From a virus, in UHGV virus genome UHGV-0040088: 39,518 bases of DNA; one strand, given 5' to 3'. Below the pieces are notes generated by a model. The model worked only from the letters and a program-made list of their open reading frames with translations, was not told the origin of the DNA and did not search any database. The position numbers and the translations under genes were made by a program. Of this stretch, positions 15,444 through 31,500 are shown piece after piece. Within the stretch, counting starts at the first letter, position 1, and the number at the start of each line of letters is the position of its first letter.

Positions 15444-17792
15444 ATGGCAACTAGTTTAGGTACAATTTACTACGAAGTTGATGCAAAAACTGGTCAACTT
15501 CTCGTTGCTCAACGACAGGCAGACCAGGCTTTTGACAGCATCGAGCGTGGCGCAAAACGCGCTGACCGCCAGGTGAACACGCTTAAGACTTCAATCAAAG
15601 CGCTATCCAGGGTTATCCATTTGCTACTTGCTGCGGAGGCTGTACGCCAGTTTATTGACATGGCGGAGCAAGCGAAAATGCTTCGCGTAAAAATCAAAAT
15701 GCTTACTGGTGATACGGAGGCTGCCGGACGTGTTTTCGATGGCCTGAAAGAAATATCAAAAGAAACCGGGCAAAGCATGAAGGATACTGGCGAACTGTGG
15801 CAAGGCCTTGCTATATCGCTAAAAAACACATCCGCTACTGAAGGCCAATTGCTAAACCTGGTCGGTACGATTCAGAAAATGGGTGCATTAGGCGGAGCGT
15901 CAGCGGAACAGATGTCTAACTCTATGCGCCAGTTCCGCCAGTCTATAGACGGCGGCGTGCTGCGTGCTGAAGAGTTTAACAGTCTGCTTGAAAACACGCC
16001 AACCATCGTACAGACAATGGCTCGCCATATGGGGTTGTCAATGGGCCAGTTCCGCGCCGAAATGCTGGACGGCAAGATCACGGCTGAAAGGATGGTTAAC
16101 GCGATTCAGGCGGCTACACAGGAAACAAACGAGAAGTTCGCACAGTTGCCGCGCACATCCGGCATGGCCTTCAATGAGCTAAAAGTTGAGGTGATGGGAC
16201 TTGTCGAACAGCTTGACGATCTTTTCGGCATATCTGACGGCGTTGTGTCAGCAATAGACTTAATCACTGGCGGCGTTGAGGGATTAGGTAAGGGCGCAAA
16301 ATTCGCCGCAACATGTTTCAATACACTCAAAACCGCTGGTAGCGAGTTCATCGACATGTTTGACGATGTTGCTGTTAAGGCTGGCGAGGTTGCTGAAGAG
16401 ATTATCAGGATGGTAACGCCAATCAAGGCGCTAATGGATGGGTACAAATGGATGAAGGAGATCATTGACAAACGCAAGGAAGAGCTAAACAGCAACAACG
16501 AGAAGAAATTCGGCCCCACCATTGGCAAATTCATGACATTCAAGAATGACATAGAAAAAGCCACAGCCGCCTATGACGAGTTCATGCAGAAACAGGGTGA
16601 GGCTGACGATGGCAAGATCACCGGATTCGATCAGCCAGTTGGTAAGCCCAAAAAAGGCAAAAAGGGCAAAAATGACAAGAAATCTGAAGCTGATCGGCTT
16701 GGTGATGAAGGCATAAAAGTGTCCGACCAGTACAACAAGGACGCCGCCGCCATGCGTAAAGCGCTGGAGAACGGCAAGGCCATTGATGCTGCGTTCGCTC
16801 AGGGCAAAATAACCCTCCTTGAGTACAAGGCCGCGCAGAAAGGGATAGGCAAGGAGCTGAAGGACGAATTGGCGCAAATCCCTGTTGATGAGCTACGCGA
16901 CAAATGGGATCACATAGTCAGCCCGATGGATCAGCTTAAGGGAGAAATTGACCCAATCAAGCAGGCGCAAAATGAATGGGCCGTTCGAAAACAAATGCTG
17001 ATAGACCTTGGCGCTACAGAGGCGCAACAGAAACAGGCGCTATTGGAATACGAACAACAGATCAGAGATCTGAAATGGGAGCAATGGCAGGCGCAAAGCG
17101 AAACAAACGGCCTGATTGGTGCTTGCGTTAGTGGCCTGAAAGGTGGAATGGGCAACGCCCTTACCGGCCTACTAAACGGTACTCAATCGTTAAGCGAGGT
17201 TTTCGCCAACCTGGGAAGTAGCATACTTAACACTGTTGGCAACAAACTATCAGAAATTGCCGCCAACTGGATAGCAGATCAGTTGATGATGGAAACGCAA
17301 AGCAAGGCTACCCAGGCAAGTACAACGGCTGGCGCTGTTGCTGCCCAAGGCGAGATTGCGGCGGCGGCTATCCCGGCGGCGGCGGCAACGGCTGCGTCAA
17401 CTGGTGGTAGCTGGGCGGCGGCTGGTGCTGCGGCGCTTTCTGCGATCATGTCACTGGCAACGTCAATCTTTGGCGGCGGGCGTTATAATGGTGGCTCTGT
17501 TAATGGTGGTAGTCTGTATCGCGTAGGGGAACACGGGATTCCTGAGTTATTCCAGACTAGCAACGGGCGTCAGTATATGATTCCTGGCGAGAATGGTAGG
17601 GTAATTCCTGGTCGCGATCTCTTCAGTGGTGGCGGCATCAACATGCCTGTTAACATCACTGTCCAGACCACAAACGGATTTAGCGACGAAGACAGTCGCA
17701 GACTTGAACAGACGATGGAACGCGTCGCAATGAAAATGATGGCAAGGGAATCGCAACGGCCCGGAGGGATGTTACAACCTCGCAGGAAATAA
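15444..17792 (+). CDS. tail tape measure protein
   Basis: 782 aa, highly alpha-helical with a Gly/Ala-rich C-terminal region (GGGRYNGGSVNGGS); position upstream of M-L-K-I-J. Confidence 0.85.
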   Translation: MATSLGTIYYEVDAKTGQLLVAQRQADQAFDSIERGAKRADRQVNTLKTSIKALSRVIHLLLAAEAVRQFIDMAEQAKMLRVKIKMLTGDTEAAGRVFDGLKEISKETGQSMKDTGELWQGLAISLKNTSATEGQLLNLVGTIQKMGALGGASAEQMSNSMRQFRQSIDGGVLRAEEFNSLLENTPTIVQTMARHMGLSMGQFRAEMLDGKITAERMVNAIQAATQETNEKFAQLPRTSGMAFNELKVEVMGLVEQLDDLFGISDGVVSAIDLITGGVEGLGKGAKFAATCFNTLKTAGSEFIDMFDDVAVKAGEVAEEIIRMVTPIKALMDGYKWMKEIIDKRKEELNSNNEKKFGPTIGKFMTFKNDIEKATAAYDEFMQKQGEADDGKITGFDQPVGKPKKGKKGKNDKKSEADRLGDEGIKVSDQYNKDAAAMRKALENGKAIDAAFAQGKITLLEYKAAQKGIGKELKDELAQIPVDELRDKWDHIVSPMDQLKGEIDPIKQAQNEWAVRKQMLIDLGATEAQQKQALLEYEQQIRDLKWEQWQAQSETNGLIGACVSGLKGGMGNALTGLLNGTQSLSEVFANLGSSILNTVGNKLSEIAANWIADQLMMETQSKATQASTTAGAVAAQGEIAAAAIPAAAATAASTGGSWAAAGAAALSAIMSLATSIFGGGRYNGGSVNGGSLYRVGEHGIPELFQTSNGRQYMIPGENGRVIPGRDLFSGGGINMPVNITVQTTNGFSDEDSRRLEQTMERVAMKMMARESQRPGGMLQPRRK

Positions 17793-22526: not shown

Positions 22527-25500
22527 ATGAGTAGCGGCGGCGGCAAAGCCAAAACACCAACACTATTGAACGATAACCTGTATCACAAACAGTTTTATCG
22601 TGTTTTAGATATTCTCAGCGAAGGGCCGATATACGGTCCGGTAAACCAGAAAGCGCCACTGAATGACGTGATGCTTAATGACACACCTGTTACTGACGCA
22701 AACGGGAATACATCAATCCCCGGGATTAGTGTAGCCTGGCGCAACGGCACGGCTGACCAGTCGCCGATTAATGGTTTTAATGCCATTGAGTCAACCGTTA
22801 TTGTCAACGCAAAGGTAACTCACGACACGCCAATAATCAGGACTGTTTCAGATCCAAACGTTACCCGCGTCAGGTTAAATCTTGGTGTTGACGCTCTCGT
22901 CCAGTCAGATGAAAAGGGCAATCAATACAATACATCCGTCATGTTGATGGTTGATGTTAAACCGTCATCTTCTTCTACGTGGTCGCTGATTAAAGATATA
23001 CACATTGGTCCCGGCAAACAAAGCGGTGAGTATCTGGAAGCCCACATCATTAAAGCACCGGATGAAAAACCGTTTGATATTCGCGTTCGTCGCGTGACAG
23101 CAGACAGCCACGGCGATCTATTGCGGAACGATACGCGGTGGAGCAGTTACAGCGAAATAATTGACGATAACCTGTCTTATCCCCATACCGCTGTAGCTGG
23201 CGCGGTAATTGACCACGATCAATATACTGATACGCCTACACGTACCTATCACCTTCGCGGCCTGATTGTTGATGTTCCTGATAACTACAACACAGAAACG
23301 CGCGCGTATTCTGGTTTATGGCTTGGCGGATTCAAAAAAGCGTACACCAATAACCCTGCGTGGATTTTCCGGTATCTGGTTAAAAACGAGCGCTTCGGGC
23401 TTGCTAAACATGCTGGTTACATTGATGTTGATGATGGCGCTTTGTACGTGCTCTCCCAATACTGCGATCAGTTGGTTGATGATGGCTATGGTGGCCTTGA
23501 ACCTCGCATGACGCTTAACGCTTACATTACGGAGCAAATGAGCGCCCGCGACCTACTGGATAACATTGCAGGTATGTTCCGTGGTATCGCGTTATGGGAC
23601 GGGCAACGCCTTACCGTGATGATTGATGCACCACAGGATCCAATTGCCACCATCACAAACGCAAACGTCGTTGATGGCGCGTTTACTCGCTCAAGTCTTC
23701 CGCTTGCAGAGTGTTACAACGCCGTGATCGTATCATGGACTGACCCGGAAAACGGCTGGGAGCAATCAAAAGAATACGTGGCAGATGATGAACTAATCGC
23801 CCGCGATGGTTATAACGAAACCACGTTGGAGGCGTTCGGGTGCACGTCACGCGGGCAAGCGTACCGCGCTGGTAAATGGCTGATAGAAACAGCAAAACGC
23901 GAGCCGTCTAAATTCACGTTTAAAATGGCCCGTGACGCAATTCACTTCACCCCTGGTGATATTATCGAGATACTCGACAATAACCGCGCTGGCGCTCGTT
24001 TAGGCGGTCGCATCGTGGCAAACAACGGCAGGGTTATCACTGTCGATAAGGTTGATTCTGAATATATCGCCCCCGGCGACACCATTAGCCTGCTTGATAG
24101 TGACGGCAAATTTAAAAAACACCAGATCACCGGAGTTAGCGGAAACAAAATTACCCTTGCATCTGCCCCGGCATGGATTCGTAACGGTACTGTGTTTGCC
24201 GTGTCAACTAACGCAGCAAAACCCGTATTGTGTCGAATCGTCAGCGTGGCGGAAACTGAAAATAACAGCGTGTACACCATAGAGGCTGCACAGCATGATC
24301 CGCACAAACAGGCTGTAGTAGATAATGGCGCAATCTTTGAGGTCAACAACGATACGCTTAATCACTTCCGCGTGCCAAACATTGAAAACCTGAAGGTGTT
24401 AAACATTGGATCTGAAACAGTTCAATGCCGCGCAACATGGGAAACACTGACGACAACTCATCGCCTGACCTTTGAAATCCGCGTATACAATTCAGCGGGG
24501 GCCGTAGTTAAAAGCTACGAAACTACTAATTACAGTTATGATTTTTATGGCATTGATGCGGGAACCTACTCATTAGGCATCCGTGGCAGAAATGACACGG
24601 GCATGAAGGGTGCTGAAAGCATTGTGGATCTGGTTATTGGTGCACCAGCGGCCCCGGTAGGAGTTAACTGGGTTCCCGGTGTATTTCAGGCTACAGTTTA
24701 CCCGATCAGCAGAACAACGCTTACCACTGACACCAGTTATGAGTTTTATTACTCAGGTGAAAAACAGATCACCGATCCGGCATCAGTAACCACTAAGGCA
24801 CAATATACCGGGCGTGGTCATCAGTGGACTTTTGGCGGCATGAACACGGGGCACACCTATTACGTTTATGTGCGCACACGCAATGCTTTTGGCGTGTCTG
24901 ACTTTGTGGAGGCATCAGGTAAGCCGACAGAGAATTTTGATGAAATCAGCGATTACGTCACCAAAGACGTGATGAACTCAGAACAGTTCAAGGAAATGAT
25001 TGGTGACATCAAAGATCTTGGTGATCGCACGGATGTTATTGAAAATGCCACAAATGAACTAAAAGCAGCTACCGACAACCTCAAAACTGCAACTGATAAT
25101 CTGACCAACATAACTGACGATTTAAGAACTGAAACCGACAACCTGACTAACATAACCGAAGATTTAAGAAATGATACTGACAACCTGATTACAGAAACAG
25201 GATCAATAAAAGCTGATACAGATACGCTAAAAAAAGAAACAGAAGATCTTTATAAAAAAGTTAAGGAAAACGCCGATGATATTGGTCAGCATGAGTCAAG
25301 AATTGATTCATTAGAAGTGTCCAGCGAAAAAGTTGGCAGCGAACTGGCGCAAGCAAAAGCAAGCCTGCAAAACGCGTCATTGGCGCTTATCAACAACTCG
25401 CTTGCACAGACAAACACGCGCGTTACCCTTACCGCCCAGTACAAAAAAGGCAGAACGGAAACGAAAGCGGAAATTGACCGTATTGACAACGTTATCGCTG

Positions 25501-28076
25501 AAGAGAAAAAAGCAACGGCTGAATCACTGAAAACCATCACGGCAGAAATGAACACGATGGATTCCAACCTTAAAGGTCAGATCTCCAGTGTGGAACGCGC
25601 AGTGGCTGACGAGGCTAGTGCCCGCGCTGAAGCTATTAACGGTGTGAACGCCTCAATAAGCAATCTCGACAAGAAAACGGATGCCAGCGTCAATAGGCTT
25701 GATCAGGCTATTGCAGATGAAACGAACGCCCGCACACAGGCGGTCAGTGACGTTAACGCAAGTATCTCGGTACTTGATAAGAAAACTGACGCCAGCGTTA
25801 AACGCCTGGATCAGGCAATCGCTGACGAAACCAGCGCAAGAACCGAAGCTATCAGTGGCGTGAACGCATCAATTTCAACGCTTGATAGCAAAGTGGAAAG
25901 CAATATAACGCGCATAGATAAAGCTATTGCAGATGAAACGCAGGCGCGTACAGACGCAATAAGCGGCGTCAAAGCGAGCATTAACACACTTGAAGGCAAC
26001 ACCAATTCAGAAGTTAAACGTCTGGATCAGGCAATCGCTGACGAGGCCAGTGCCCGCACACAGGCGGTAAGTGATGTAAAAGCATCAGTAAGCAACCTTG
26101 AAAGCAAAACTGACGCCAGCGTTAAACGCCTGGATAAAGCTATTGCAGACGAAACAAGCGCACGCAGCGAAGCTATTAGTGGGGTAAATGCCTCAGTATC
26201 AGCGCTCGACAAGAAAACCGATTCAAGCATAAGCCGCCTTGATAAAGCCATTGCGGATGAAACAAGCGCGAGAACCGAAGCCATCAACGGTGTGAATGCG
26301 TCAATTTCCACACTCGACGGCAAGGTTACAAGTAACGTTAGCCGCCTTGATAAAGCAATATCAGACGAAACGAAGGCAAGAAGCGACGCAATAACAGAGG
26401 TTAAAGCAGACTTAACAACGCTTGAGAACAGCACAAACGCCAGCGTTAAGCGTCTTGATCAGGCAATTGCCGATGAATCAAGCGCCCGCGCACAAGCAAT
26501 ATCAGGACTCAGCGCAAATCTTGGCACTGTTGAAAATAATGTTGGCAAAAACAGCGACGAAATAAATCAGGCAAAAGCAAGCCTGCAAAACGCATCTATT
26601 GCACTTATCAATAACTCAATCGCTCAAACCAACACGCGTGTTACTCTTTCAGCCCAATACAAGAAAGGAATCAGAGAAACCAACGCGAAAATTGACCGCA
26701 TTGACAATGTTGTAGCAGAAGAGAAAAAAGCAACGGCAGAAGCCATTAGCGGGGTAAGCGCATCGATCACCGATCTTGATAAGAAAACTGAAGCAAGCGT
26801 TAACCGCCTTGACAGGGCGATTGCAGACGAAACAAGCGCCCGCAGCGAGGCTATCAGCGGCGTGAATGCGTCAATTTCCACGCTTGATAGTAATGTGAAA
26901 AGCGACATTACCAGGATGGACAAAGCCATCGCCGATGAAACAAAAGCACGCGCAGACGCAATAAGCGGCCTTAGCGCATCGCTTACCAGTACGATCAACT
27001 CAAAAGTGTCTGAAGTGTCAACGGCACTTTCTACGCATGAGGAATCAAGTGCAGAAAAATTTAGCCAGATCTCGGCGTCTTTCGAATCAGTAAACTCAAG
27101 CATTACAGAATGGTCGCAGGCAATGGCTACAGCAGATAAGGCGTTGTCAACGAAAATTGATCAGCTAACAGTGACTGTTAACGGGAATAAGACGGCAATA
27201 GAGACGACATCTAAAGCGTTAACCGACTTTAAGGGTAATGTTGATGCGTCATATTCAATTAAGCTCGCCACCGACAACAACGGCATGAAATACGCAACAG
27301 GTATGTCACTTGGCCTTACTGGTGATGGGACCAACTTTCAGTCGCAGTGTATTTTCCTTGTTGACCGCTTCGTGTTAATGACTGACGCTAACGGTTCGTA
27401 TCAAACGCCTTTCTATGTAACTAATGGCGCAATGTATGTAAGAGAAGCGTTTATTAAAGACGGCACTATCAACTCCGCCAAAATAGCTGATCTAATACAG
27501 TCAGTTAATTATAGCTGGGAAGGCGCGACAGGATGGGCGATAAATAAAAACGGTAACGCAGTATTTAACCAAGTAACCGTAAGGGGGACGGTATACGCTA
27601 ATGCTGGTGTGTTTAACGGTACTGTTTACGCAACTGGCGGTAAATTTACTGGAGCAGTTGAAGCCACAAGTTTTGTTGGTGACGTAGCAAGTATGTCAGT
27701 GATAAACGAGAAAGTATTTCCGTCAATGAGGGGGAGCGGCAGCAGGGAAACTTCAAAAACTTATCTTGATTCAAGTTCATCAAGTTTATCAAAAACCGTT
27801 TACGTTATGATTCCGTATGATTTGTCATACTATACACATAGTGAATCTTCTCGTATCAGCGTAACTATAAACATAAACGGACACGCAAAAACAATTAATA
27901 TAGAAAGGCCAGCATCAGGTCCATCAATGTCATCTGTCGCGGTGCACTGTGTACATGACCTAACATACCCAACAATTACAGTCAAGGTTACGGAAAACTT
28001 TACCAATACATCCGCTGCATCAATAAGAAAACCAGGCTTGATACTTATAACAAGAAGTTCAGGAACATGGGTATAA
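22527..28076 (+). CDS. J: tail tip / host specificity protein J (lambda gpJ-like) with greatly expanded central coiled-coil repeat region
   Basis: N-terminal about 800 aa align block by block with lambda J as recalled (SEGPIYGP, YHLRG..YSG, YCDQ..GYGG..EPR, FGCTSRGQAYRAGKWL). 1849 aa versus about 1130 for lambda J. Confidence 0.9.
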   Translation: MSSGGGKAKTPTLLNDNLYHKQFYRVLDILSEGPIYGPVNQKAPLNDVMLNDTPVTDANGNTSIPGISVAWRNGTADQSPINGFNAIESTVIVNAKVTHDTPIIRTVSDPNVTRVRLNLGVDALVQSDEKGNQYNTSVMLMVDVKPSSSSTWSLIKDIHIGPGKQSGEYLEAHIIKAPDEKPFDIRVRRVTADSHGDLLRNDTRWSSYSEIIDDNLSYPHTAVAGAVIDHDQYTDTPTRTYHLRGLIVDVPDNYNTETRAYSGLWLGGFKKAYTNNPAWIFRYLVKNERFGLAKHAGYIDVDDGALYVLSQYCDQLVDDGYGGLEPRMTLNAYITEQMSARDLLDNIAGMFRGIALWDGQRLTVMIDAPQDPIATITNANVVDGAFTRSSLPLAECYNAVIVSWTDPENGWEQSKEYVADDELIARDGYNETTLEAFGCTSRGQAYRAGKWLIETAKREPSKFTFKMARDAIHFTPGDIIEILDNNRAGARLGGRIVANNGRVITVDKVDSEYIAPGDTISLLDSDGKFKKHQITGVSGNKITLASAPAWIRNGTVFAVSTNAAKPVLCRIVSVAETENNSVYTIEAAQHDPHKQAVVDNGAIFEVNNDTLNHFRVPNIENLKVLNIGSETVQCRATWETLTTTHRLTFEIRVYNSAGAVVKSYETTNYSYDFYGIDAGTYSLGIRGRNDTGMKGAESIVDLVIGAPAAPVGVNWVPGVFQATVYPISRTTLTTDTSYEFYYSGEKQITDPASVTTKAQYTGRGHQWTFGGMNTGHTYYVYVRTRNAFGVSDFVEASGKPTENFDEISDYVTKDVMNSEQFKEMIGDIKDLGDRTDVIENATNELKAATDNLKTATDNLTNITDDLRTETDNLTNITEDLRNDTDNLITETGSIKADTDTLKKETEDLYKKVKENADDIGQHESRIDSLEVSSEKVGSELAQAKASLQNASLALINNSLAQTNTRVTLTAQYKKGRTETKAEIDRIDNVIAEEKKATAESLKTITAEMNTMDSNLKGQISSVERAVADEASARAEAINGVNASISNLDKKTDASVNRLDQAIADETNARTQAVSDVNASISVLDKKTDASVKRLDQAIADETSARTEAISGVNASISTLDSKVESNITRIDKAIADETQARTDAISGVKASINTLEGNTNSEVKRLDQAIADEASARTQAVSDVKASVSNLESKTDASVKRLDKAIADETSARSEAISGVNASVSALDKKTDSSISRLDKAIADETSARTEAINGVNASISTLDGKVTSNVSRLDKAISDETKARSDAITEVKADLTTLENSTNASVKRLDQAIADESSARAQAISGLSANLGTVENNVGKNSDEINQAKASLQNASIALINNSIAQTNTRVTLSAQYKKGIRETNAKIDRIDNVVAEEKKATAEAISGVSASITDLDKKTEASVNRLDRAIADETSARSEAISGVNASISTLDSNVKSDITRMDKAIADETKARADAISGLSASLTSTINSKVSEVSTALSTHEESSAEKFSQISASFESVNSSITEWSQAMATADKALSTKIDQLTVTVNGNKTAIETTSKALTDFKGNVDASYSIKLATDNNGMKYATGMSLGLTGDGTNFQSQCIFLVDRFVLMTDANGSYQTPFYVTNGAMYVREAFIKDGTINSAKIADLIQSVNYSWEGATGWAINKNGNAVFNQVTVRGTVYANAGVFNGTVYATGGKFTGAVEATSFVGDVASMSVINEKVFPSMRGSGSRETSKTYLDSSSSSLSKTVYVMIPYDLSYYTHSESSRISVTININGHAKTINIERPASGPSMSSVAVHCVHDLTYPTITVKVTENFTNTSAASIRKPGLILITRSSGTWV
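25581..27010 (+). repeat. in-frame tandem repeats (36 aa / 108 bp, about 12 copies) inside J
   Basis: Repeated unit approximately V(K/N)RLDxAIADETxARxxAIsGVNASISxLDxKTDAS; the array is split by a second copy of a block (AKASLQNAS..IDRIDNV..EEKKATAE) at about 25358 and 26570. Confidence 0.85.
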
Positions 28077-28079
28077 AAA

Positions 28080-28108
28080 TAACCCCGCTTCGCGCGGGGT
28101 TTTCTTTT
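28080..28108. terminator. bidirectional terminator between J and minus-strand lipoprotein gene
   Basis: A-rich run, stem ccccgc/gcgggg, then TTTTCTTTT. Confidence 0.65.
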
Positions 28109-28346
28109 AGTAGTTAGCTACACAGTTAGAAGGGCTACCGATGCGGCGCATGTTGTGATCGAGTTCATGACACCATTGACCAGTATAAGGCAGTTTTTCA
28201 GTGTCATAGACAAGATGACCTTCACCATCATAGACAACATCTTGTGGAATTACTCCGCTATTCGGCAGGTTATGCAATGCGGCCTCTTTGTCAACAGCGC
28301 AACCAGTAAGAGCTACGGCCGCAGAGAATAAAACCACTTTGAACAT
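28107..28346 (-). CDS. small lipoprotein (79 aa), possible receptor-blocking superinfection exclusion factor
   Basis: Signal peptide with lipobox LTGC (MFKVVLFSAAVALTGC); function inferred from position between the J and fiber genes. Confidence 0.6.
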   Translation of the reverse strand: MFKVVLFSAAVALTGCAVDKEAALHNLPNSGVIPQDVVYDGEGHLVYDTEKLPYTGQWCHELDHNMRRIGSPSNCVANY

Positions 28347-28533: not shown

Positions 28534-31500
28534 ATGATTTACACAACTGGAACAGTTGCCATTAACGGCAATACTGTTAAAGGCACGGGAACAAACTTTT
28601 CCGCGCCGCTTTCTCTTATTCGTGTAGGTTGCACGCTCATTGCTGTTGGCAATCCTGTGCAGATCTTTACCATCACGGAAATTAAAAGCGGCACTGAACT
28701 GTTAGTGACGCCAGCAGCTAACCCCGCAATCCCTGCCGGGACAAAATTTAGCATCCTGCTATCTGATTCGATCTCAGTTGATGGGCTTGCTCAGGACGTA
28801 GCTGAAACCCTGCGTTACTACCAGAGCAAAGAAACAGAAATCGCCTCCGCCGTAGAGTGGTGGAATGAGATCGGCGGCGAAGGTCAGTTGGATCAGCTTC
28901 TTACCAACATTCGCGCAGAAACAGCCAAATCAACCGCTAACGCTCAAAAAACAGAAACTGACAAAAACGCAGCAGAAGCGTCAAAAACAGCGGCTGCAAA
29001 ATCCGCCACGGCAGCGAAAACATCAGAAACCAACGCTAAGGCAAGCGAGACGGCAGCGAAAACAAGCGAAACCAAAGCCAAAACATCAGAGGACAGGGCG
29101 CAAGAATATCTGAATCAAATGGGAAGGCTTACCAGCCCAATGGTCCAATGTGCTTGGCCTGTTGAAACTAGCGGTAATGGCGCTTACGTTAAGATTGCTA
29201 AACTTAGCGATCCAAAGTCATCAGACTGCCACTTAACGCTAATGGTTACAAATGGCGGTGGCTACGGTTTAAGTTACGGGAATATTGACTTTATAGAGAT
29301 CTCCGCTCGAGGTCTTAACGACACAGGCGAAGTAACCAGTGAAAATATATCTAAATTTTTAAGTATTCGCCGACTCGGTTCACCAAACCTTCCCAATAAT
29401 AGTCAAATGTGTTACGGCCTGGTTAAAGGTGACGGCTATATCGAGGTCTGGTGCTACCAGCGATCTTATATTAAAAACACAAAAGTAGCGGTGCTGGCGC
29501 AGACTGGCAACACGGAATTATACATTCCTGAAGGATTTGTTAAGCAAGCCGACGCACCCGCTGGATATATTGAAAGCCCAGCAGCAAGGATTTACGACCA
29601 GGTAAACAAACCCAGCAAGGCAGATCTGGGCCTTTCTAATGCTATGCTTACAGGCGCTTTCGGTCTTGGCGGTAGCGGGATATCAACAACCGGCAAGATG
29701 AGCGATGTAGAGATCTTAAAAGCTCTGCGTGACAAAGGTGGTCATTTCTGGCGCAGTGATAGGCCGACCGGAAGTACGGCGACCATTTATAGCCGCGGTT
29801 CTGGTATATTCTCGCGGTGCGGCGATACGTGGTCGGCGATCAATATCGACTACGGAACAGGTAAAGTCAAGGTTTACGCTGGTAACGATGGTGGACTTAA
29901 TAGTGGTAATTTTTCCGTCAATGAGCTATACGGAACCAAAAATAAACCGTCGAAATCGGACGTTGGACTTGACAACGTAACCAACGATGCACAGGTTAAA
30001 AAATCCGGCGACACCATGACTGGCGACCTGTCGATCACTAAAGCAACACCTTCGATATACATTCGTTCAAAAAGTGGAACCGCCCATGTATGGTTCCAGA
30101 ATGAGGATCAATCGGAACGCGGTGTTATCTGGGCGCCTACCAATTCCGAAGGACTTGGCGAAGTTCACATCAGGGCCAAAAATACAAAAGGTGAATCAAC
30201 TGGTGAACTCATTGTTCGTCACGACGGGGAAATTAGGGTTCCCAGTCTCACAGCGAGTAAAAAAATAAAAGGCGCAACCGCAGATTTTACAAACACATCA
30301 GAAACCACGACGGAGAACACGTTAAAAATCAGCGGTAAGCAGCATACACCGTTAGTTTTAACGCGTACCGGGTATTCTGAAAACCTGTCCATTGGCTTCA
30401 AGGTTGATAACGTTGTTCAAAAATACCTCGGTATTAATAGCGGTGGGGATCTGTGTTTTGGTGATTATGCCGATCACAAAACAAACAGCAAAGTTATCAC
30501 GCAAGCAGTGCTTGATAGCGGTGTGACGGTAGGCGGTCAGACAACCTTTTCTAAACTTGCCACATTTAGCAAAGGCATGACCGGGCCTATCGTACCGGAA
30601 GGGCTTGACTCACGTACCATTGATCTTAATGACCTAATCATCAATGGTTCAGATATAGGATCGGTCAAATACTATCAATGTACATCTTCCAGTGGTGGAG
30701 CGAACATTACCAACAAGCCTGACGGCGTAGGCGGTAACTTCTTGCTGCGTGTAGAGTCAGTCCGTAAAGTTAGTGATACTGACTATATAAGTATGCAAAC
30801 ACTGACTAGTGGCGACAAAGAACGCGTATTTGTTCGTTTTAATACTAATAGTAAGTGGACAGCATGGTGTGAACCTGTTGTATCGGGATGGAAGCAGGAT
30901 GTGTCTGTTAAGACGCTAACAGCAGCCGAAGACGTCATCCTTAAAAACAGTGATACTGGTCCGCGCCTTATTTTAAGGAACTCTAACACATCGGCGCAGT
31001 CGTGGAGTGTAAGGGTGTGGGGTGAAAGCGGAAGGGAAAGCGTTTTTGAGGTTGGTAACAGCAATAGTTACATGTTCTATGCTCAGGAAGATGCAGCAGG
31101 AAACAAGAAATTTGACTTTAACGGTGATATTTCATGTAAGACGCTATATCAAACTTCTGACCAGAGCCTTAAAGACAACATTAAGGTTATAGGTGACGCC
31201 ACCGAATCCATCCGCAAAATGAATGGGTACACCTACACGTTTAAGGACGATGGCCTGCCTTACGCTGGCGTTATTGCACAGGAAGTAATGGACGCGCTGC
31301 CTGAAGCGATAGCGTTTACCACTCTTTGCGGCAAGGAGCTACAAGGACCAACAACTGACGGCAACATCTTACGCGAGGAAATGAAGTGCCTCAGCGTTGA
31401 CTATGCGGCGGTGACTGGTTTACTTGTCCAGGTGGCACGCGAAACGGATAACCGCGTCACCGAACTGGAAGAGGAGAACGCAAGCCTGAAAGCTAACATT

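Follow-up and report, generated by a model that had tools for sequence, protein, structure and literature searches.

A predicted long modular helical shaft in the J-type central tail fibre protein of virus genome UHGV-0040088

The J gene and the layout of its insert

The virus genome UHGV-0040088 (39,518 nucleotides (nt), referred to here as the window) carries a gene for a J-type central tail fibre, or tip attachment, protein (hereafter J), the middle part of which is examined here. The gene is a single intact open reading frame (ORF), and its product matched the profile PHROG 31 (phrog_31, 'central tail fiber J') with E=0. The ORF order, with which the annotation of relatives is syntenic, places J after the tape measure gene and the tail-tip genes M, L, K, and I; the tape measure protein (782 residues) was recognised by a TMP_3 domain in the ORF at 15444-17792. 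Phage mEp010 covers 85% of window positions 1-22500 at approximately 90% identity, and six other members of the published mEpimmI group are similar in this respect. Across the genome, the virus is similar in nucleotide sequence to mEp021-type phages and syntenic with them, and its J gene matches as well; these features identify it by sequence as a temperate siphophage (coliphage) of this group, with its structural region in the window.

Pfam families were assigned to both ends of J. The proximal part contains FNIII-A_GpJ (residues 88-214), Phage-tail_3 (335-492), Ig_J (609-707), and Ig_J_second (709-811), and the distal part contains Phage_Tail_Tip (PF09327). A phmmer comparison with solved structures aligned lambda gpJ 1-858 with residues 1-851 of J (domain E=1.5e-179) and lambda gpJ 840-1010 with residues 1553-1736. 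J thus shows the features of the lambda-J / TipJ family, namely a hub and FNIII part collinear with that of lambda, a PF09327 prism followed by a C-terminal receptor-binding domain (RBD), and the gene order. Approximately 700 residues are inserted at the site of the alpha-helical segment of lambda gpJ, which comprises only 53 residues (809-861), as compared with 745 in J. An earlier note on this DNA, made from the sequence alone, had proposed that lambda J blocks at both ends of the protein flank an insert replacing the lambda linker at 24960-27200 (residues 812-1558), and the alignments bear out both the proposal and these coordinates.

Within residues 812-1556, no Pfam family scored above its curated cut-off in the Pfam copy searched, which did not hold PF28217. 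Matches to SF-assemblin, Baculo_PEP_C, and DUF4806 inside the insert all fell under the curated cut-offs and were rejected as compositional coiled-coil noise. In four shorter homologs (P0009, P0024, P0035, and P0036), PF28217.1 is annotated just upstream of PF09327, and some of the region may already fall within this more recent curated family.

Proline is absent from all 745 residues of the insert (812-1556), as compared with 4.3% in the N-terminal part, and the hydrophobic period is helical, at 3.53 in residues 830-935 and 3.60 in the repeat arrays. An AlphaFold2 (AF2) model of the insert, calculated as a monomer from a 42-sequence alignment (mean predicted local distance difference test score (pLDDT) of 63), contained three long helices at residues 835-928, 939-1338, and 1344-1545, amounting to approximately 696 helical residues, with beta structure from residue 1548 onward. 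This prediction agrees with the helicity that the earlier note had suggested and would imply a much longer central fibre than that of lambda. A second AF2 model, of residues 1540-1849, disagreed with the first on helix or strand over five residues (1541-1545), which we judged insignificant.

From the N-terminal side, the insert consists of a heptad tract, a block of approximately 70 residues followed by nine 36-residue units, a second such block followed by two units, and a helix preceding the tip (Table 1). The pre-tip segment is the most conserved part, with 92-97% identity in most relatives and 72% in mEp013. We consider it likely that the whole region forms an alpha-helical shaft, modular and of exceptional length, which joins the last FNIII/Ig domain to the beta-prism and knob.

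Table 1. Features of the J gene and of the genes downstream of it, with positions in the window
Feature	Position	Strand	Basis
Gene for the J-type central tail fibre (tip attachment) protein, 1849 residues	22527..28076	+	single intact ORF, 5550 nt
Hub and FNIII/Ig part, residues 1-811, collinear with lambda J 1-~815	22527..24959	+	Pfam; phmmer against 8iyk_J, E=1.5e-179
Helix 1, heptad tract xDNLxxT, residues 835-928, period 7/14 residues	25029..25310	+	AF2; autocorrelation; Tandem Repeats Finder (TRF); hydrophobic period 3.53
Predicted helix break 1, residues 929-938, VSSEKVGSEL	25311..25340	+	non-helical in AF2; pLDDT <50 (model residues 128-145)
Duplicated block B1, residues 941-1010, AQAKASLQNAS...EEKKATAE...	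25347..25556	+	73% nt identity to B2
Array 1, nine 36-residue (108-nt) units, residues 1011-1334	25557..26528	+	register; hidden Markov model (HMM) 59-73 bits; TRF period 108; hydrophobic period 3.60
30-bp exact repeat in unit C, partner 26106-26135 in unit F	25782..25811	+	longest exact repeat in the gene
Unit H, recombinant unit (scar of a two-unit deletion)	26313..26420	+	comparison with NRZ96606 units 8 and 10
Predicted helix break 2, residues 1339-1343, VGKNS	26541..26555	+	non-helical in AF2; pLDDT <50 (model residues 529-546)
Duplicated block B2, residues 1347-1416	26565..26774	+	pairs with B1; homology to HK639 J
Array 2, two 36-residue units, residues 1417-1488	26775..26990	+	HMM 70 and 63 bits; aligns with F2-pyocin central fibre shaft and T1 gp33
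Pre-tip helical segment, residues 1489-1556	26991..27194	+	AF2 helix to residue 1545; aligns with F2 pyocin distal shaft ~1000-1065
Central straight fibre beta-prism domain, residues 1557-1694	27195..27608	+	PF09327, E=9e-39; strands in both AF2 models; Foldseek to lambda gpJ713
C-terminal receptor-binding knob, residues 1695-1849	27609..28073	+	AF2 pLDDT 90-97; Foldseek to lambda central fibre and TNF-like / needle-knob folds
Exclusion-type lipoprotein, 79 residues, lipobox LTGC, between J and the side fibre gene	28107..28346	-	ORF; 96% identity to type-C Lpp of mEp010
Side tail fibre, 1011 residues	28534-31569	+	N-terminal 3-237 matches phage depolymerase N-terminus (7vyv_A, E=4.5e-37)

Repeat modules and their variation among relatives

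The first module of the insert had been described in the earlier note as an 11-residue repeat (TDNLTNITDDL). Autocorrelation gave identities of 0.28, 0.34, and 0.28 at lags of 7, 14, and 21 residues and of 0.10, i.e. background, at lag 11, and TRF reported a period of 42 nt. The module is therefore a heptad tract; measured from FDEI (residue 804) to the first KASLQNAS, it spans 140 residues in J.

In the arrays, the R[LI]DxAIADE motif recurs at a spacing of exactly 36 residues. The unit HMM found 11 clean copies in J and two degenerate ones, each of which is the C-terminal half of one of the two blocks. The previously proposed figure of about 12 tandem 36-residue repeats thus holds for the spacing and nearly for the number. 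They do not form a single array; they are split into nine and two, each group following a block. The duplication of the block, also proposed earlier, is real (73% nt identity between B1 and B2), and the duplicated stretch is approximately 56-70 residues rather than about 30. The J protein of HK639 (1154 residues) has one copy of the block and aligned with J through B2 (E=5e-35 and 4e-11); therefore, the modules of the window are amplifications of an ancestral shaft. Judged from these alignments, the 36-residue unit arose when the C-terminal half of the block, which is single in shorter J proteins such as that of HK639, was amplified in tandem.

At 3.6 residues per turn, 36 residues make exactly ten helical turns. 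Conservation was assessed on 66 distinct units from 13 proteins, in which 94-100% of the units share the identical residue at each of R11, D13, A15, I16, D18, E19, A22, R23, and A26. The RxD motif, an interchain clamp of trimeric coiled coils, is represented by R11-L12-D13 (R11 and D13 at 94% each), with L12 in the core. The conserved R-x-D with a core residue at x, the period of 3.60, and the absence of proline are all features of trimeric RxD coiled coils, the oligomeric state proposed for J.

The units have diverged considerably at the DNA level. Their pairwise nt identity is 44-81%, and identity among them is 71%, 79%, and 34% at codon positions 1, 2, and 3, respectively; the longest exact repeat anywhere in the gene is 30 bp. 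The conservation of positions 1 and 2 far above position 3 indicates that the copies are old and have been maintained by selection at the protein level. Two antisense ORFs lie within the repeats, at 26027-26434 (minus strand, 135 residues) and 26624-27103 (minus strand, 159 residues), and probably result simply from the sequence being repetitive and poor in stops. A second coding constraint is disfavoured because third codon positions of the sense frame are near-random. In the records of mEp554 and mEp044, a terminator on the minus strand is annotated within J.

For comparison we assembled 21 J proteins, comprising that of the window and those of 20 complete genomes (seven phages and 13 E. coli prophages; loci L001-L012 and L015-L022). 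The full-length relatives were drawn from annotated genome collections, as the protein homology search returned only fragments or proteins of at most 1304 residues. The mEpimmI J proteins (mEp554, mEp044, mEp010, mEp013, mEp021, and mEp515; PMC11893012) and those of the E. coli prophages have the same position after L-K-I, the same domain order, and the same heptad tract, blocks, and 36-residue units as J. The alignment with related J proteins that the earlier note had recommended thus recovered the same architecture.

An assembly artefact or a decaying pseudogene, the former of which the earlier note had named as a possible refutation, would be suggested by nothing but the presence of repeats. 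The repeats are too diverged for mis-assembly, with no exact match longer than 30 bp, and the architecture recurs in the 20 other independent complete genomes. Decay is contradicted by the intact ORF and by the codon-position pattern, and the long J of mEp021 (1727 residues) was found in virions by mass spectrometry. We therefore regard this explanation as having practically no chance of being correct.

Within the group, J ranges from 1358 to 1935 residues, the shaft (from FDEI to AIETT) from 262 to 839 residues, and the number of units from 0 to 13. The shaft has 753 residues in mEp044 and mEp554 (a predicted length of approximately 110 nm), 631 in mEp010, 419 in mEp515, and 262 in the prophage-derived MLI107 type (approximately 39 nm). 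This variation in whole units is what would be expected of a contingency locus, in which 108-bp repeats slip at high frequency and generate fibre-length variants within populations. Such a locus is very improbable here, as near-identical tandem DNA units are absent: the low identity between units, the near-random third positions, and the 30-bp maximum for an exact run all make frequent slippage unlikely. Moreover, units A-E have positional orthologs in the mEp phages (83-92% identity), which indicates that the arrays are old and stable.

Two units retain traces of recombination. In E. coli strain 127 (L012), the first two units, A and B, show 100% identity to those of the window, and the next one is a chimera of C and F with its crossover inside the 30-bp exact repeat (window 25782 / 26106), so that three units are lost. 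In the window itself, unit H equals unit 8 of NRZ96606 over the 5' 44 nt and unit 10 of NRZ96606 over nt 31-108. By this comparison, unit H is the scar left when two units were deleted through a stretch of 15 bp common to both. The shaft changes in length by in-register unequal recombination between diverged units, a rare process rather than phase variation. The length variation foreseen in the earlier note is thus supported as far as recombination is concerned, but not as frequent slippage.

The heptad tract also varies in length, always by multiples of seven residues. Tracts of 91, 98, 105, 126, 140, and 154 residues (the last but one including that of the window, 24936-25355) are accompanied by 0-2, 2, 3-4, 7-8, 9-11, and 13 units, respectively. 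Across the 21 proteins, which were not corrected for phylogeny, tract length and unit number are correlated with a Spearman's rho of 0.91 and a slope of 4.7 residues per unit. The sole outlier is mEp515, with a 140-residue tract and four units. The covariation could be attributable to shared ancestry or to common selection on total length; it could also mean that the two are coupled structurally, the tract serving as a spine that fits a prism.

The receptor-binding end

The earlier note had observed that the C-terminal domain differs from that of lambda. This is so for the sequence, as the last 155 residues have no BLAST similarity to the lambda RBD, but not for the fold: the AF2 model of the last 310 residues (1540-1849; pLDDT 80) gave lambda gpJ713 as its best Foldseek match (E=2e-14). 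The last 155 residues are approximately 32% identical to those of mEp010, mEp044, and mEp554, which use LamB, and have no similarity to those of mEp021 and mEp515, which use OmpA. They are 88-97% identical to four prophages, with 97% to the E. coli 2-331 prophage.

The conclusion that the receptor is probably a different one from that of lambda does not follow from these data. LamB is used by relatives with equally non-lambda RBD sequences (PMC11893012), and the lipoprotein gene adjoining J matches type-C Lpp, which excludes LamB-dependent phages, lambda included. LamB is a candidate receptor because of this match. A 46% match to phage CAjan was also considered as a guide to the receptor and dropped, as the BASEL paper does not assign a receptor to that allele.

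The distal receptor module appears, from the sequences compared, to be swapped within the group. Some relatives, such as E. coli UMNK88 (L015, 8595-9774, with cor in addition), have no integral knob in J but two small ORFs after it, of approximately 100 and 210 residues, an arrangement that resembles that of HK639 (L014, 14631-15571) and the separate pyocin PyoF11/F12 adaptor proteins.

On the other side of J, an HNH endonuclease gene lies between tail genes I and J in mEp021 (L005) and mEp515 (L006), at 3437-4003 in both. The window has no HNH gene at this place, and its J starts 15 nt after I.

Function of the shaft and its relation to known fibres

The prism-proximal part of the shaft is homologous to tail fibres of solved structure. 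Residues 1401-1679 aligned with residues 914-1187 of the F2-pyocin central fibre (E=1.6e-30) and with residues 891-1133 of T1 gp33 (E=1.9e-31); the pyocin match appeared with residues 1340-1849 as the query and was not returned when the full insert was searched by phmmer against the PDB. The homologous F2-pyocin segment is a three-stranded coiled coil, which also carries the side fibres. By analogy with this solved shaft, three chains of J would associate into a parallel trimeric coiled coil. If it were straight and fully extended, approximately 696 helical residues at 0.15 nm each would place the knob approximately 100 nm beyond the tail tip, a distance comparable with the length of the tube that the 782-residue tape measure protein sets. 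With this extra reach, the knob may be able to get past surface polysaccharide to an outer-membrane protein. The segment adjoining the beta-prism (residues ~1401-1556) has homology to the pyocin shaft, which on firing refolds to a beta-prism; a lambda- or pyocin-like rearrangement on triggering probably involves this segment.

Several points weigh against such a shaft. The trimer, its straightness, and its total length go beyond the AF2 model, which is a monomer with a mean pLDDT of 63. Published electron microscopy of six relatives gives tails of approximately 130 nm and does not mention a long tip fibre. The two predicted breaks could let the modelled shaft fold back, making it much shorter than 100 nm. 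Finally, the J proteins of LamB-using relatives span 1504-1828 residues, and a link between shaft length and host range is hypothetical.

The pyocin homology also bears on a more radical possibility, in which the whole repeat region is a metastable spring. The coiled coil of the blocks and 36-residue arrays would convert to beta-prism on receptor binding, leaving a fibre several-fold shorter, pulling the tail tip to the membrane, and powering tape measure protein ejection, while the heptad tract became an external 'spine'. Each 36-residue unit would be a two-strand hairpin of the latent prism, and the arrays an expanded form of the F-pyocin switch element. In F7 pyocin, a 163-residue shaft refolds to beta-prism on target binding and drives tape-measure ejection (PMC12874032); the switch is established for that pyocin, and a similar one has been predicted for 21 of 24 phage fibres, HK639 included. 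Lambda shows a small-scale version, in which gpJ residues 841-861 change from helix to strand. The homology of the pre-prism shaft to the switching region, in both F2 pyocin and HK639, covers residues ~1350-1556, and the upstream arrays are related to it only as amplified copies.

The SxSxxMxxLxS strand motif, which alternates in direction along switching regions, is present throughout the arrays of J. Every 36-residue unit contains one reversed (ASVKRLDQAIA) and one forward (ARTEAISGVNA) copy, and the blocks add four more. The total is 43 in J, as compared with 10.8 +/- 3.2 in shuffles, a statistic that has to be discounted since the units are copies of one another and not independent. The same regular expression found six alternating copies in HK639, in agreement with the five to six strands reported, and the unit of the window derives from the HK639-homologous strand pair at 935/950. 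Furthermore, the six S positions are at least 98% small (A/S/T/G) in the 66 diverged units, including positions 7 and 32, which are exposed on the helix opposite the core. The scaling of tract length with unit number is also what a spine matched to a prism would give.

Against a spring of this extent, the AF2 model has only helix for residues 835-1545, although a monomer cannot reveal the prism state, and 33-40-residue repeat-like segments in the T1-like phages TLS and Shfl1 are predicted in the literature to be helical inside the prism. The RxD motif and an adhesin homolog (see below) point to a stable coiled coil. mEp515 is viable with a 140-residue tract and only four units, and the covariation, uncorrected for phylogeny, could also result from common selection on total length. 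We conclude that switching is plausible for the prism-proximal part (residues ~1350-1556) and unlikely for the region as a whole. If the whole region did switch, a coiled coil of approximately 100 nm would shrink several-fold as it became a prism on receptor binding, and the tail would be reeled in to the outer membrane; reach and stored energy would both be adjusted by the number of units, which is coupled to the length of the tract, and the 21 natural variants with 0-13 units would be a length series for force generation by non-contractile tails.

The predicted breaks admit another function, in which the shaft is mainly a docking platform: the breaks at residues 929-938 and 1339-1343, each preceding a block, would be kinks that receive side tail fibre trimers, and the duplication would provide two tiers. 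The side fibres of F2 and F-type pyocins bind a kink of the central shaft, He et al. suggested that non-coiled-coil interruptions may be side-fibre sites, and a side fibre gene lies downstream of J. Its product contains a Peptidase_S74 intramolecular chaperone (residues 875-925) and an Ala/Thr/Lys-rich repeat of seven residues, or 21 nt, at 29026-29085. In Ur-lambda, however, the side fibres attach via a collar contacting gpV and gpM rather than the J shaft, and relatives with one block or two have similar side fibre genes. The docking interaction is a prediction, and the side fibre N-terminus matches a phage depolymerase adaptor, not pyocin PyoF13. Docking as the main function seems to us distinctly unlikely.

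A modular shaft that projects the knob, which we favour, bears on the question of how tails that do not contract get to the cell envelope and through it; in F pyocins, the coiled-coil shaft of this fibre was recently implicated as the energy store. The mEpimmI group offers a natural series of shafts of 262-839 residues whose modules can be counted, and its K-12 phages can be cultivated and have known receptors (LamB, OmpA). This series makes two ideas testable, namely that shaft length sets the reach through polysaccharide and that it sets the stored energy.

Among known systems, lambda gpJ (PDB 8IYK, 8XCK, and 8XCJ) is collinear with J in its hub, FNIII domains, helical segment, beta-prism, and C-terminal knob, and differs in the length of the helical segment. 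The central fibre of F-type pyocins (PA0641 / PyoF10; PDB 25VF; PMC12874032) has both sequence homology and the strand motif in common with J. The pyocin shaft is approximately 170-260 residues long, mostly heptad-based, and without the 36-residue tandem arrays; its receptor binding is performed by separate proteins, and its fold switch has been demonstrated, whereas that of J is a prediction.

T1 gp33 and HK639 J resemble J in having an extended distal fibre. A search of the PDB with the unit profile matched only T1 gp33 (residues 882-1009, E=1.8e-8; PDB 9L9P), the distal fibre of which was unresolved by cryo-electron microscopy and predicted to be approximately 37 nm long. T1 has approximately four 33-residue units and HK639 essentially one, and both are without the duplicated higher-order module and the 20-repeat heptad tract of J.

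A scan of 1.84 billion representative proteins yielded 209 clusters at E<=1e-3, many of them with a 36-residue period. They include other J-like giants of 1922, 2006, and 2411 residues with a helical, 36-residue-periodic insert immediately before PF09327. The scan also gave P0086 (1834 residues), a trimeric autotransporter adhesin with a YadA anchor and approximately 12 copies of the 18-residue repeat RLDTAISDEKTKREQEVS. Its stalk has the RLDxAIxDE core in common with the phage unit, at a period of 18 or 36 residues (3.6 per turn). By analogy, this likeness suggests that the phage shaft works as a rigid trimeric stalk projecting a binding head. YadA-family stalks are membrane-anchored and autotransported, whereas the phage fibre has neither an anchor nor autotransport, and the likeness may reflect a shared or convergent coiled-coil module, or module exchange, rather than family membership.

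The closest known relatives of J are those of its own group. J is approximately 85% identical at the nt level to the J genes of mEp554 and mEp044 and 93-94% to those of E. coli prophages. Its units are split 9+2, as compared with 7+4, 4+4, 4+0, and 3+0 in the phage relatives checked and 7+2, 8+2, and 11+2 in most prophages, and its RBD allele is common only to some prophages and, at 56%, to MagusPhagus. The 2025 mEpimmI paper (PMC11893012) reported that the size of the J proteins varies and that they contain 'repeats of different length (positions 950-1,475)', and gave no structural interpretation. The repeats were thus already on record, and the feature is less novel than the earlier note implied; added here are the module map, the scars of recombination, the relationship with the pyocin shaft, and the covariation of tract and units. 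J is one more allele in a family that has been published, and its kind, the central fibre with an extended helical shaft, is known; within this kind it lies at the long extreme and has unusually clean modules.

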